This document shows, piece by piece, positions 11,788 to 57,250 of a stretch of 64,000 nt of DNA. Numbering within the stretch: position 1 is the first letter of the stretch; the number at the start of each line of letters is the position of its first letter. The notes under the pieces were generated by a model. The model made no database searches, was not told where the DNA came from, and was given only the letters and a program-made list of their open reading frames with translations. A program made the translations under genes and the position numbers. The stretch is from Nitrosopumilus sp. (lineage in GTDB: Archaea > Thermoproteota > Nitrososphaeria > Nitrososphaerales > Nitrosopumilaceae): positions 1,248,001 to 1,312,000 of the forward strand of contig OZ242041.1 of NCBI GenBank assembly GCA_965205215.1, given 5' to 3'.

Positions 11788-11878
11788 TGGACCGGGTGGG
11801 ATTCGGACCCACGACCTTTGCGGGCTGTGCCTTACGCAGTGTGAGTGCGTCATCCAAACCAGGCTAGACGACCGGTCC
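11788..11878 (-). tRNA. tRNA-Val(CAC) with a 16-nt intron at non-canonical position ~44/45 (11817-11832)
   Basis: Acceptor stem GGACCGG/CCGGTCC-A, anticodon arm ACGCA-CTCACAC-TGCGT, T arm GTGGG/CCCAC. The BHB motif TGCG-TAA-GGC...GCC-CGCA-AAG flanks the insert. Confidence 0.9.
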
Positions 11879-52485: not shown

Positions 52486-53862
52486 TTGACTCCACGAGGG
52501 TTAAAAATAACCATAAAGGAATCTAGTCACGCAGGAAAGCACGCAAAGCTGATCCTTGATGACGGAACCGTCCTTGAGGGGGATGGCTTTGGGAGTTCTA
52601 CCACCGTATTTGGGGAGATCGTGTTCAATACTGGAATGGTCGGGTATACGGAGGCCCTGACCGACCCGTCGTACAACGGGCAGATACTCACGCTGACCTA
52701 TCCGCTTGTGGGGAACTACGGGGTGCCTGACCCGTCCGCACTCGACGCGGACGGCATACCGAGGTTCTTCGAGTCGGACCGCATACAGGCCCGCGGGCTC
52801 GTAGTGCATGAGCTCTCTCTTGTCGCGAGCCATTGGAACATGCACATGACCCTTGACGAATGGATGCACGGACAGGGCATCCCGGGAATATCCGGTCTGG
52901 ACACGAGGGCCCTTACAAAGGGGCTCCGGACGGGCGGCGTGATGATGGCGGCCCTTGCAGTGTCCGATTCTGAGATTGACGCGGACCTGGTAAGGGCCAG
53001 ACTTGCAGAGTCGCCCCGGTATACGTCAGAGCAGTTCATGGACGCAGTGTCGACCAAGTCCCCGCGCTCGTACGGGTGCGGCGCGCAGCGCGCGGCCGGG
53101 GGGGGCAACGGCGACGGAGGCGGGGAGAGAAAAAGGCCGATCGTGGTGATCGACACGGGCGCAAAGCATGCGATACTGCGCAACGTACGCTCTCTTGGAT
53201 ACGGCGCCATACTGGTGCCGTGGAACACCCCGTACGAGGACGTGATGTCGTACGACCCGGCAGGCGTCGTCATCAGCAGCGGGCCCGGAGATCCGGAGAA
53301 ATGCAAGGAGACCGTACAGACTGCCGCGCGCCTGATAAAAGACGACGTTCCGACCCTGGGCATATGCCTGGGCGCGCAGATACTGGGCCTTGCGGGAAGC
53401 GCCCGCACGTACAAGCTAAAGTACGGACACAGGGGCCAGAACAAACCCTGCACCAACCTTGAGACCGGGCAGACGTACGTGACGAGCCAGAACCACGGGT
53501 ACGGGATATCCCCCGACTCGTTGCAGGACTCTGAGTTTGACCTGTGGTTCTCAAACGCCGACGACGACACGGTGGAGGGCATTAAACACAAGTCGAGCCG
53601 GTGCATCGCAGTGCAGTTCCACCCGGAGGCGTCGCCGGGTCCATACGACTGCCGGTTCGTGTTTGAGAACCTGAGGGACCTCATAGAGGGGGGGCCGGGC
53701 GAGGCGGCCGGCGGGAGCGCGCAGGATGGCAGTAATGGTAGCGACCACGGCAACGATAACGGCGGCAGCAGCGGCAGCCACGACGGCAGCAGCAGCAACA
53801 CCCAAAAAACATCACGCTTGCAGGATGCAGAGGAGGTGATAACAGCAACTGCCAAAGAATGA
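52486..53862 (+). CDS. carA: Carbamoyl-phosphate synthase small subunit
   Basis: GEIVFNTGMVGY, TDPSY, GPGDP, GICLG, HRGQN, QNHGY, QFHPEASPGP. Confidence 0.96.
   Translation: MTPRGLKITIKESSHAGKHAKLILDDGTVLEGDGFGSSTTVFGEIVFNTGMVGYTEALTDPSYNGQILTLTYPLVGNYGVPDPSALDADGIPRFFESDRIQARGLVVHELSLVASHWNMHMTLDEWMHGQGIPGISGLDTRALTKGLRTGGVMMAALAVSDSEIDADLVRARLAESPRYTSEQFMDAVSTKSPRSYGCGAQRAAGGGNGDGGGERKRPIVVIDTGAKHAILRNVRSLGYGAILVPWNTPYEDVMSYDPAGVVISSGPGDPEKCKETVQTAARLIKDDVPTLGICLGAQILGLAGSARTYKLKYGHRGQNKPCTNLETGQTYVTSQNHGYGISPDSLQDSEFDLWFSNADDDTVEGIKHKSSRCIAVQFHPEASPGPYDCRFVFENLRDLIEGGPGEAAGGSAQDGSNGSDHGNDNGGSSGSHDGSSSNTQKTSRLQDAEEVITATAKE
53831..53840 (+). promoter_or_regulatory. Shine-Dalgarno sequence for carB
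   Basis: AGGAGGTGAT, 8 nt upstream of CTG 53849. Confidence 0.7.
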
Positions 53863-56800
53863 GACGCTCAAGAAGATACTCGTGCTTGGAAGCGGGGCCA
53901 TCAAGATCGGAGAGGCCGGCGAAAGCCGCTGAAACGGCCGCCATTTCGACTACTCCGGCAGCCAGTGCCTCAAGGCCATACACGAGGACGGACTGGACAG
54001 CGTGCTGATAAACCCGAACATTGCGACGATCCAGACTGACACGCGGTTCGCAGACAAGGTATACCTGCTGCCCGTCACTCCGGACTACGTATCCTCCATA
54101 ATAGAGACCGAGCGGCCTGACGGGATAATGCTCGCGTACGGGGGGCAGACCGCGCTCAACTGCGGCGTCAAGCTTGACGAGTCCGGCGTGCTTGCCAAAT
54201 ACGGCGTACGCGTGCTCGGCACTCCGGTATCGGGCATCAAGAATACCGAGGACAGGCAGCTCTTCAAGGACGCCATGGGCGGGGCGGGGGTGCCCGTGCT
54301 GAGGAGCAAGACCGTGACAAACTTTGCAGACGCAAAGACCGTGGCAGAGGAGCTCTCGTACCCCGTGATAGTCAGGGTGGCGTACACGCTTGGCGGGCGC
54401 GGCGGGGGCGTCGCGTACAACGAGATCGAGCTGCACGAGATTGTGGAGCGCGGCATAAAGGCGAGCCTGGTGGGGCAGGTGCTGATAGAGGAGTACGTGG
54501 GCGAGTGGAAGCAGATCGAGTATGAGGTCATGCAGGACTATTCGGGTAACAGCGTAATCGTGTGCAACATGGAGAACGTCCTGTCCATGAAGGCGCATAC
54601 GGGCGACAACATCGTGGTGGCGCCGTCCCAGACCATAGACAACGCCGAGTACCACATGCTGCGCTCGGCCGCCCTGCGGGCCACCGCGTACGTGGGGATT
54701 GTGGGCGAGTGCAACATACAGTACGCGCTGGCGCCGGACTCTGACCGGTACGTGGCAATTGAGATAAACCCGCGGCTCTCGAGATCCTCGGCGCTTGCAA
54801 GCAAGGCGACCGGATATCCGCTTGCGTACATGTCTGCCAAGATAGGGCTTGGGTACAAGCTGTCCGAGCTTGTCAACCGCATTACGAAAAGCACCACGGC
54901 CTGCTTTGAGCCGTCCCTTGACTACGTGGTCTGCAAGCATCCCCGGTGGGACTTTGCAAAGTTTGAGATGGCCAACAGGCGCCTCGGCCCCACCATGAAG
55001 TCCGTCGGCGAGGTGATGGCGGTGGGCCGCACGTTTGAGGAGTCGCTGCAAAAGGCAATACGCATGCTTGACATTGGGAACGACGGGCTGGTGCTGAACC
55101 GCGTTGACTATACAATATATGGCCACAATGAGGGTGGCGACGGCCGCACCCCCGACGTCGAGGAGATAGAGGAGCGCCTCTCGCACCATGACGACCGCAT
55201 ACTGTACAACGTGGCGGCCGCAATCAAAATGGGGATAAGCACCGAGCGGATATACAAGCTGTCCGCGATCGACCCGTGGTTCATAGAAAAGATACGGCAC
55301 GTGGTGCAGGTTGCCGACAGGCTCGTCTCAAGTGACGGCAAAGGCGGCAGAACCGGAGCAGGCGGCGACAGCAGCGGCAGCGACAGCAGCGGCGACAACA
55401 ACAACGGTGGTAGCAGCAGCAGCAGCAAGGTGCCCTCACGCCTCATGTGGGAGGCCAAAAAGGCTGGATTCTCCGACGCGCAGATAGCGCGTGCGCGCCA
55501 GACGTCCCCGGACGCCGTCCGAGAATGGCGCAAGTCGATGGGCGTCACTCCGTCTGTAAAGCAGATAGACACGCTAGCGGCCGAATGGCCCGCCGTGACA
55601 AACTACCTGTACGTGACGTACGGGGGCGGCCACGACGACGTACGCCTGTCCGGCCCCGACGACCGCGGAATCGTGGTGGTGGGGGCGGGGCCCTACCGCA
55701 TAGGAAGCAGCGTGGAGTTTGACTGGGGGACAGTAAACATGGTGTGGGGGCTGCAGGAGAACGGCGAGAAGAACGTAGTCGTAGTCAACTGCAACCCCGA
55801 GACGGTCTCTACCGACTATGACATCTGCTCCCGCCTCTACTTTGAGGAGCTTACGCAGGAGAGGCTGCTTGACATATCCGACTTTGAGAGGCCAAAGGGG
55901 GTCATAACGTGCGTCGGGGGGCAGACTGCAAACAATCTTACGCTGGGCGCGGCGCGCCGCGGCGTCCACATCATGGGGACTGCCGCCTCCGACGTCGACA
56001 GGGCCGAGGACCGCTCCAAGTTCAGCGCCGAGCTTGACAAGCTGCGCATACGGCAGCCGGAATGGCAGGCGTTTGCCAGCATGGCAGACGCGCGCGCCTT
56101 TGCGGCTTCGGTCGGCTACCCGGTTATAGTGAGGCCCTCGTACGTGCTGTCCGGCGCCGCGATGAAGGTGGTGTGGTCCCGGGACGAGCTCAGCACGTAT
56201 GTCAGGGAGGCGGCCGACGTCTCGCCCGACCACCCGGTCGTGATATCAAAGTTCATGCTCAACTCGCTGGAGGTCGACGTGGACGGCGTGGCCGACGGCA
56301 AGGACGTGGTGATAGGGGCGATCGTGGAGCATATAGACAGCGCCGGCGTGCACTCGGGGGACGCCATGATGTGCATCCCGCCATGGCGCCTGAGCAACAA
56401 CACCATAGACACCATCACCGAGTACACCAAGAAGATCGCCCTGACCTTTGGCGTGAGGGGCCCGTTCAACCTGCAGTTTCTGGTGAGCGACGGGCAGGTG
56501 TACGTGATAGAGCTGAACATAAGGGCCTCCCGGTCCATGCCGTTTGTCTCAAAGTTCGTGCGCTCAAACCTCATCGCGCTTGCGGCACGGGCGATTCTCG
56601 GCAAGCCCCTGAGCCCCATACCCGAGGAGAAGTGGCGCCGCACCGCCACGTACGGGATAAAGGTGCCGCAGTTCTCCTTTATGCAGCTTGACGGGGCCGA
56701 CATTGCGCTGGGAGTCGAGATGCAGTCGACAGGCGAGGCCGCCTGCTTTGGAAACAGCTTTTATGACGCACTCTCAAAGGGACTCACCTCCGTGGGCTAC

Positions 56801-57250
56801 AACCTGCCCGATTCCGGGGCCGCGCTGGTGACTGTGGGCGGGGCCAGGAACAAGGAAAAGCTGATTCCTGCAATCGCAAAGCTGAAGGATCTCGGGTTTG
56901 AGATCATGGCAACGGAGCACACCGCGGAGTTCATCTCCGAGGTGGTGGGGCCGGTCCGTACGGTCCACAAGATATCCGAGCCGGATCGCAAGCCGAACAT
57001 CGCGGACCTGCTGTACGAGCGCAAGATTGACTTTATACTCAACATACCAAGCACCTCTACCTTGGAAAAGTACGTCGGGATGCTGGAGGACGAGTACCAG
57101 ATACGCCGCAAGGCGCTCGAGCTCGGGGTCCCTGTCCTGACCACAGTCGAGCTTGCAGACTCTTTTGTAAAGACTCTGGAGTGGCTGCGCACAAACAAGA
57201 CGACAAGGGACCACCTGCCGTCGTATTCTGACGGCAGCGGCAATCGGTAA
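53849..57250 (+). CDS. carB: Carbamoyl-phosphate synthase large subunit, interrupted by a 21-nt putative intron; join(53849..53923,53945..57250)
   Basis: (M)PKNETLKKILVLGSGAIKIGEAGE [SR*NGRH] FDYSGSQCLKA...INPNIATIQTD. The rest is an intact two-ATP-grasp CarB with an MGS domain. Confidence 0.93.
53924..53944 (+). other. Putative bulge-helix-type mRNA intron in carB
   Basis: GGCG-AA^A-GCCG-CTGAAA-CGGC-CGCC-AT^T. Contains an in-frame TGA; canonical cuts restore GAA-TTC. Confidence 0.8.

Follow-up and report, generated by a model that had tools for sequence, protein, structure and literature searches.

Introns of the bulge-helix-bulge (BHB) type form a very small class in archaeal mRNA. The classic protein-coding example is the crenarchaeal cbf5 intron, cited as such in the initial annotation of the DNA described here, and two papers agree with this in the portions available. 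One of them reports no other such intron in an mRNA besides a case in a 5' untranslated region (UTR) of Haloferax (PMC7714728). The other gives the cbf5 introns a length of 16–44 bp, has splicing confirmed for no other gene, and counts no introns in the cbf5 genes of Cenarchaeum symbiosum and Nitrosopumilus maritimus (PMC2738675). The accessible part of a 2026 review names the BHB for tRNA only (PMC13149111). Here we analyse a 21-nt insert in carB, which encodes the large subunit of carbamoyl-phosphate synthetase, in a stretch of 64,000 nucleotides from Nitrosopumilus sp. (GenBank assembly GCA_965205215.1, contig OZ242041.1, positions 1,248,001 to 1,312,000 of the forward strand). The whole stretch is called the window below, and its numbering is used throughout. 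The insert, at 53924–53944, is very probably a relaxed BHB mini-intron that is spliced from the carB mRNA by the splicing endonuclease plus RtcB. carB is a new member of the known, very small class. A literature search found no description of a carB intron, as had been supposed at the outset; the supplements of papers lay outside this search, and a mention there is possible.

The cbf5 introns of Desulfurococcales and Sulfolobales resemble that of carB in several ways. They are short BHB-type introns in a coding gene, often with a relaxed motif, they are linked to a hetero-oligomeric endonuclease, they show patchy gain and loss, and annotation often misses or misreads them (PMC2738675, available portion). 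The host differs, being an RNA-modification enzyme rather than a central metabolic one, as does the lineage, and the carB intron, unlike that of cbf5, also occurs in a second phylum. The Haloferax case, HVO_1309 of H. volcanii, is an mRNA substrate of the splicing endonuclease demonstrated both in vivo and in vitro, but according to the accessible text (PMC7714728) it lies in the 5' UTR, in one species, with a different endonuclease type and no frame to restore. The relaxed hBH, HBh' and bulge-helix-loop (BHL) tRNA introns of the TACK archaea (Thaumarchaeota, Aigarchaeota, Crenarchaeota and Korarchaeota) have the same structural grammar and the same enzyme class as carB; the relaxed motifs are defined in PMC5829648. 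In carB, unlike in these, the host is a messenger and the flanks are codons, so that the exon helices must be built from synonymous choices. A more distant likeness is HAC1/XBP1 splicing of eukaryotes, in which a tiny coding intron is removed by a structure-specific endonuclease (IRE1) and a tRNA-type ligase (tRNA ligase or RtcB), and in which the unspliced mRNA gives a different or truncated product. IRE1 is, however, not homologous to the archaeal nuclease, and HAC1/XBP1 is a regulated stress switch. The same pathway is named in the part of the 2026 review that was available (PMC13149111).

The carB frame opens after a TAA at 53840. Exon 1 (53849–53923, forward strand), with its presumed start at a CTG at 53849, has 25 codons and reads LPKNETLKKILVLGSGAIKIGEAGE. 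The insert that follows carries an in-frame stop, translating as SR*NGRH with the TGA at 53930–53932, and FDYSGSQCLK... resumes directly after it. Exon 2 (53945–57250, forward strand) is an open frame of 1101 codons plus a stop, in keeping with the intact remainder of about 1100 codons described in the initial annotation, whose coordinates and letters were all correct. It contains the full CarB domain set in Pfam (CPSase_L_D2, D1, D3 and MGS), and the architecture is that of CarB, with PF25596 twice, PF02786 twice, PF02787 and PF02142, and with carA adjoining. Exon 1 corresponds to positions 3–20 of PF25596, and the match resumes in exon 2 at position 21; in an intron-less relative, positions 3–117 are covered without a break. 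A peptide nearly identical to exon 1 runs straight into FDYSG in 20 intron-less relatives. The host genome, a single contig of 2,098,239 bases that is 95% complete, was searched for another intact carB and has none: the interrupted copy is the only one, and the second match is an ATP-grasp protein with 27% identity.

Inserts at this site are common. Of 30 carB loci in 41 related genomes, 10 are interrupted at precisely this codon boundary, and in the other 20 GEAGEFDYSG is continuous. A pattern of 15–45 extra bases between A-G-E and F-D-Y-S-G matched 226 of the 401 genomes of the order, in 350 of which carB was detectable (both tallies include the unpublished genomes G279 and G289, which are used for no other claim), and a reversed control pattern matched none. 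By family, the insert was found in 71 of 112 genomes searched in f1, 98 of 111 in f15, 40 of 97 in f10, all nine in f4, two of four in f13 and the single genome of each of f2, f3, f8 and f11. It was found in none of those searched in f9 (11), f12 (10), f14 (15) and f19 (6). Within genus g1, where 11 of 46 genomes have it, intron-bearing and intron-less species coexist. Outside the order, one of 341 genomes of the same phylum matched (G463), and this match is by eye ordinary uninterrupted coding sequence; the pattern, which requires A-G-E before the site, is narrow, and other lineages may escape it. Of 80 loci in named records, 42 have the insert, none of them under a bacterial title. The titles include Nitrosopumilus (some), Nitrosarchaeum, Nitrosomaritimum, Nitrosopelagicus (one), Cenarchaeum sp., Nitrosotenuis, Nitrosocosmicus and Nitrososphaeraceae, and the named enrichments and isolates include Ca. 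Nitrosopumilus salarius BD31, Nitrosopumilus sp. b1 and Ca. Nitrosotalea bavarica SBT1.

Six genomes that belong to a second archaeal phylum also have the insert, again at this codon boundary. A search of 351 genomes of that phylum gave seven pattern matches, of which five are clear carB inserts (G757, G1064, G958, G878 and G1031) and two, in G928 and G987, are by eye not carB-like; G758 is the sixth genome with a carB insert. The G878 intron shares its CUGAAA loop and its CGCCAU end with the intron of the window. Two loci in records titled Woesearchaeota (L202) and Methanosarcinales (L212) share both the boundary and the build, with inserts of 32 nt. The carB intron is thus widespread and not peculiar to this genome, a point that the initial annotation had missed.

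A total of 213 loci were parsed, 155 of them with an insert, and these gave 104 distinct introns of 17–40 nt. They follow a single plan. The exon ends in GG(C/U)G-A-R, and the intron starts with A, followed by a hairpin whose first base is G and whose last is C. The next four bases can pair with the exon GG(C/U)G; then come A-N and the exon UU(C/U). The stem is anchored at fixed distances from the intron ends, so that its pairs can be counted without an alignment, and the first three anchored pairs are standard in all 104 distinct introns. In 90 exon-plus-intron variants there are 18 types of four-bp stem: pair 2 is C-G in 45, U-A in 39 and U-G in six, and pair 4 is G-C in 46 and A-U in 36, with others in the remainder. 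The central helix pairs GGCG with CGCC, CGUC, CGCU or CGCA, the GGCG/CGCC types being dominant, or GGUG with CACC or CACU, which are compensatory changes on both sides. Its inner three pairs are kept in all 90 variants, and the outer pair is G-C, G-U or G-A. The 5' bulge is A-R-A; the first base of the intron is A in 89 of the 90, and its penultimate base is always A.

The 37 distinct variants of 21 nt can be aligned free of gaps. In this alignment 96.9% of cells pair, against 17–56% when the partners are slid, and the covariation score was reached by none of 500 shuffles. It had been suggested from the start that compensatory stem changes be looked for across relatives: the intron stem is 100% paired, with changes on both sides at three of its four pairs. 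In the exon-exon helix 98.4% of cells are paired, with no covariation, as these are coding sites. All three elements, the intron stem, the central helix and the exon helix, are also predicted independently by RNAalifold.

In the window, all on the forward strand, the 5' strand of the exon-exon helix (CGGAG, 53908–53912) pairs with CTCCG at 53953–53957, a pairing given by RNAfold and by RNAalifold on the 37 sequences. The exon strand of the central helix (GGCG, 53918–53921) pairs with the intron strand CGCC at 53939–53942. Between the central helix and the intron hairpin is the 5' bulge AAA (53922–53924), with the 5' splice site between 53923 and 53924. The hairpin itself (53925–53938) has the stem GCCG (53925–53928) with CGGC (53935–53938) and the loop CUGAAA. 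On the 3' side a bulge or loop, AU|U (53943–53945), contains the 3' splice site between 53944 and 53945; the unpaired stretch here may reach 53949, which is a relaxed form. RNAfold draws every helix that had been proposed, and the helices, the bulges and the exon helix are all where they had been placed. A search of Rfam gave no family match within 53400–54400 at E values up to 1.

The exons carry a trace of the same structure. In 109 intron-bearing loci, synonymous sites that are predicted to be paired are nearly fixed: the central-helix GGC has C in 106 and U in three, UAC is found in 109, AUC in 106, GAC in 103 and UCC or UCU in 108, and GGA in 104, with G at this site in four more. Sites in the same loci that are predicted to be unpaired vary, with GCN ending in C in 47, A in 56 and G in six, GAR in A in 68 and G in 41, and GGN in C in 20, A in 35, T in 53 and G in one. 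In 20 intron-less loci all of these synonymous sites vary. The intron-bearing and intron-less groups differ in GC content, and the contrast inside the intron-bearing group is independent of it.

Eight public sequencing runs contain part of the stretch, two of them sponge metatranscriptomes (with small shares) and six of DNA type; the two metatranscriptomes (X1 and X2) and two DNA runs (X3 and X5) were compared over 52486–57250 at the level of contigs. In metatranscriptome run X1, a 297-nt contig of depth 14.6 covers 53827–54144 with six other letters and omits the 21 nt at 53924; the second metatranscriptome, X2, does not cover the intron site. The deletion spans exactly 53924–53944, and no other placement gives the same product. 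It cannot slide, and hence coincides with the predicted cut sites, in agreement with the proposal that cleavage follows the second base of each bulge. The DNA runs X3 (depth 38.8) and X5 (19.7) both cover the site and keep the insert, with zero depth for the deletion. An assembly or sequencing artefact, for which DNA reads lacking the insert would have spoken, has a practically negligible probability, as these two runs carry the insert independently and more than 200 other genomes have a homologous one. In X5 a second strain is also present; its intron has five differences, one of them an extra base, and is thus 22 nt long (window 53926–53944), with a stem that stays paired through G-U.

The X1 contig could be explained in another way, namely that the 21 nt are never removed, that the contig comes from a close strain with no insert (transcribed, or carried over as DNA), and that carB is broken or decaying in the present genome. 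Its six differences in 297 positions do mark the contig as another strain, RNA libraries can hold DNA, and both kinds of species share a genus, as seen in g1. Nevertheless we regard this explanation as very unlikely indeed. The only carB copy has 1101 intact codons, and decay does not account for an insert that 226 of 401 genomes retain, whose structure covaries and whose flanking exon sites are under constraint. The sampled intron-less congeners have 85–88% protein identity over 300 residues, against 98% nucleotide identity for the contig, and the deletion is absent from X3 and X5.

The lengths of the introns bear on a further alternative, in which the insert stays in the mRNA and the ribosome deals with it by read-through, by recoding, or by bypass as in phage T4 gene 60. 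The hairpin stands right after the last codon of exon 1 with the stop close behind, which is superficially like a bypass signal. However, 54 of the 104 distinct introns are not multiples of three, so that read-through cannot restore the frame, and in the window it would add seven residues between positions 20 and 21 of PF25596. For bypass, the last codon of exon 1, GAA or GAG, has no matching landing codon before TTC or TTT, and the inserts end in CAT, CAA, TAA, AAA and others. With the 21 nt also missing from the X1 RNA contig, handling by the ribosome is extremely unlikely.

The frame-keeping introns have a feature of their own. All 50 of the distinct introns with a length divisible by three carry a stop in the CarB frame, as do 38 of the 54 others. 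In a first set with 45 such introns, the other two frames contain a stop in two and 10, and shuffled introns had a stop in 11.7 on average and 21 at most (2000 trials). In the same set 29 of 41 frame-shifting introns have a stop, a difference with a Fisher p of 5e-5 when kinship is ignored. The stop is mostly in the loop, and in six introns it is only the last codon. We read these stops as the result of selection that keeps ribosomes from making, out of unspliced mRNA, a CarB with added residues. Such selection implies that ribosomes do meet unspliced transcripts. Some cbf5 introns (33–39 bp) also keep the frame and, in the accessible account, disrupt a catalytic codon, which differs from the invariable stop in carB.

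The genome contains the enzymes that splicing would need. There are two separate endonuclease genes, of 225 and 215 aa, each with PF02778 and PF01974 (the N-terminal and the catalytic domain of the enzyme), and one RtcB gene (E 5e-172). Endonucleases of the (alpha-beta)2 type occur in Thaumarchaeota and cleave the relaxed motifs HBh', hBH and BHL, according to the available part of PMC5829648, which bears out the initial annotation on their tolerance. By analogy with these, the two subunits found here would assemble as (alpha-beta)2. A tRNA intron in the window has the same geometry, as had been noted from the sequence: tRNA-Val(CAC) (11788–11878, reverse strand, ARAGORN) has a 16-nt intron at about 11817–11832, with borders set by eye, and in its fold a helix UGCG/CGCA, a bulge of 3 nt and a stem GGC/GCC are laid out as in carB. 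In our own parse this intron lies after the anticodon stem on the side of the variable region, not at the usual 37/38 position. The cleavage motifs of tRNA-Val and carB are close: in both, (U/G)GCG pairs with CGC(A/C), the 3-nt bulge is rich in A, and the stem has G as its first base and C as its last.

It is very unlikely that the insert is removed from the RNA by another structure-specific RNase plus a ligase, or by self-cleavage. The departure of the 3' site from a canonical 3-nt bulge and the lack of an Rfam match would fit such an activity, but the geometry and the cuts two bases into the bulges are those of the known substrates of the endonuclease, and tRNA-Val repeats this geometry within the window. 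Introns of 17–40 nt are too small for any known self-splicing intron, and the lineage has a broad-specificity two-subunit enzyme (PMC5829648, available part).

Two scans of the genome for other candidates were made. A general BHB motif with a filter for fusion of open reading frames gave 1914 and 1886 matches against 697 and 656 in reversed or complemented controls, and a sequence-restricted motif gave 335 forward matches against 346 and 384 in the controls. In a genome of 60% G+C this is too noisy to speak either for or against a further mRNA intron.

We therefore return to splicing by the tRNA machinery, as proposed in the initial annotation and now supported by site conservation, covariation, non-triplet lengths, exon constraint, the RNA contig and the enzymes encoded in the genome. 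Around the site the transcript has the hairpin at 53925–53938, a central helix of 3–4 bp, a 3-nt 5' bulge and a looser 3' bulge or loop, closed by the exon-exon helix. The two-subunit splicing endonuclease would then cut after 53923 and after 53944, and RtcB would join the exons to give ...GEAGE|FDYSG... and would probably circularise the 21-mer. Only spliced mRNA would yield the CarB of 1126 residues, and ribosomes on unspliced mRNA would halt at the intron TGA. The identity of the nuclease (EndA) and of the ligase, the ends left and circularisation are inferred, and any regulatory use would be speculative.

Several observations weigh against this account. The RNA evidence is one assembled contig from one metatranscriptome, and its strain is not that of the window but one with about 98% identity; such libraries may contain DNA, and the share of spliced molecules cannot be read from contigs. 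Cleavage, ligation, the circular intron and the junction peptide stand as predictions. The fold of the single sequence is not better than chance (z = −0.49, with 58 of 200 shuffles equal or better), so that support for the structure comes from comparison. There the sequences are kin, so that the shuffle figures overstate their independence, although the slid-partner control is unaffected. The outermost pair of the central helix is G-A in 22 of the 90 variants. The 3' splice site does not lie in a clean 3-nt bulge: a strict second bulge is possible on paper as AU|U, but in RNAfold 7 nt stay open, and the RNAalifold bulge has 5 nt, with G13 (the outer G of the central helix) paired to the third base of the Phe codon. 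This 3' geometry fits the relaxed BHB forms rather than the strict hBHBh' form. Finally, carB has no canonical start codon.

The start deserves further comment. No in-frame ATG, GTG or TTG is present between the TAA at 53840 and the conserved N-terminus of CarB. The CTG at 53849, which is overlapped by the end of carA, occupies the position of the ATG or TTG of relatives. At the aligned position, 70 intron-bearing loci have CTG in 38, ATG or TTG in 13 and other codons in 19 (GCG, TCG, CTA, ATA, CAA and AAA), and 18 of 20 intron-less loci have ATG or TTG. The link between intron and CTG is not absolute, as CTG is found in two intron-less named loci and ATG in some intron-bearing ones. The peptide of 27 aa that the initial annotation expected from unspliced mRNA holds only with the CTG at 53849 as start; that this codon is non-canonical was passed over there. 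A fusion of carA and carB through a +1 frameshift was considered as an explanation of the start and rejected: no slippery site is convincing, and in many relatives a stop closes the frame a short way upstream.

The distribution described above gives some indication of history. The intron is old or mobile: most ammonia-oxidiser families have it, as do some genomes of the second phylum. Its presence and absence need five changes on a tree of CarB from 30 loci, at least three of them forced by well-supported branches; in one example an intron-less species is nested with two intron-bearing ones. Repeated precise loss is the simpler reading because of the identical site and the shared sequence signature, though the tree itself cannot tell gain from loss.

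Some individual loci are worth recording. The L212 contig, whose title says Methanosarcinales, is part of a genome of 1.2 Mb placed in the small-genome phylum of G757 and L202, and a 2.5-kb contig titled Heimdallarchaeota (L187) has a Nitrosopumilaceae-type carB, 85% identical, with the common 21-nt intron. The record titles of L187 and L212 look unreliable. A locus of family f7 (L117, G096:C1:7013-7131) has a 31-nt insert at the same boundary in which the AG...CCGC signature is missing; this may be an intron in decay, an unrelated type of insert or a mistake in the sequence, and it was left out of the intron counts. In L217 (G1064, 1–82) and L220 (G1031, reverse strand, 1–81), carB exon 1 has a further interruption: between KVLVLGSGA (or LLLGSGA) and (L)KIGEAGE, which is in another frame, lie about 29–35 extra bases with stops. 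This is possibly another mini-intron, about eight codons (24–27 nt) upstream of the first.

The gene directly upstream, carA, encodes the glutamine amidotransferase small subunit (52486–53862, forward strand, putative start; PF00988 E 3.3e-47, PF00117 E 3.5e-45). Its stop, a TGA at 53860–53862, falls 14 nt within exon 1 of carB. The last 60 or so residues of the open reading frame form a Gly-, Ser-, Asp- and Asn-rich tail (GGSAQDGSNGSDHGNDNGGSSGSHDGSSSN, window 53560–53862), outside the Pfam domains, which end at residue 397 of 458. In DNA run X3 the contigs have loose ends and small joints at this tail, and the stretch may thus be repeat-variable. The X1 contigs cover carB from about 53760 onwards and contain no carA (window 52486–53757), which could reflect a separate carB transcript, a diverged carA or chance.

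The genome also contains archaeal amoA, and the organism is thus an ammonia oxidiser. For such organisms the carB intron is an annotation trap: in about two thirds of the carB-bearing genomes of the order, gene finders will call carB truncated, frameshifted or a pseudogene, and metabolic reconstructions of ammonia oxidisers and symbionts can then wrongly show an auxotrophy for arginine or pyrimidines. More generally, carB provides a second family of introns that the endonuclease splices from coding sequences in archaea. Its host is a central metabolic gene in one of the most abundant archaeal groups, and it comes with unusually strong comparative support and a first RNA observation. The 104 variants form a natural series, with and without a shift of frame, in which every in-frame member has a stop; this is direct evidence that ribosomes reach unspliced mRNA in archaea and that this exposure is under selection.

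A more speculative suggestion, which we consider rather unlikely, is that the intron is a checkpoint on CarB synthesis, with the first enzyme of the arginine and pyrimidine pathways gated by the tRNA-splicing endonuclease and RtcB. If true, this would be an archaeal counterpart of the unconventional splicing of HAC1/XBP1, and the ever-present in-frame stop would be a fail-safe. The weak CTG start at 53849, which the end of carA overlaps, would hold back the first ribosome long enough for splicing to take place while the structure is still folded. The presence of the intron at one codon boundary in two phyla, together with the second mini-insert 24–27 nt upstream in two genomes, would then imply that mRNA splicing by the endonuclease is old and recurrent in archaea.

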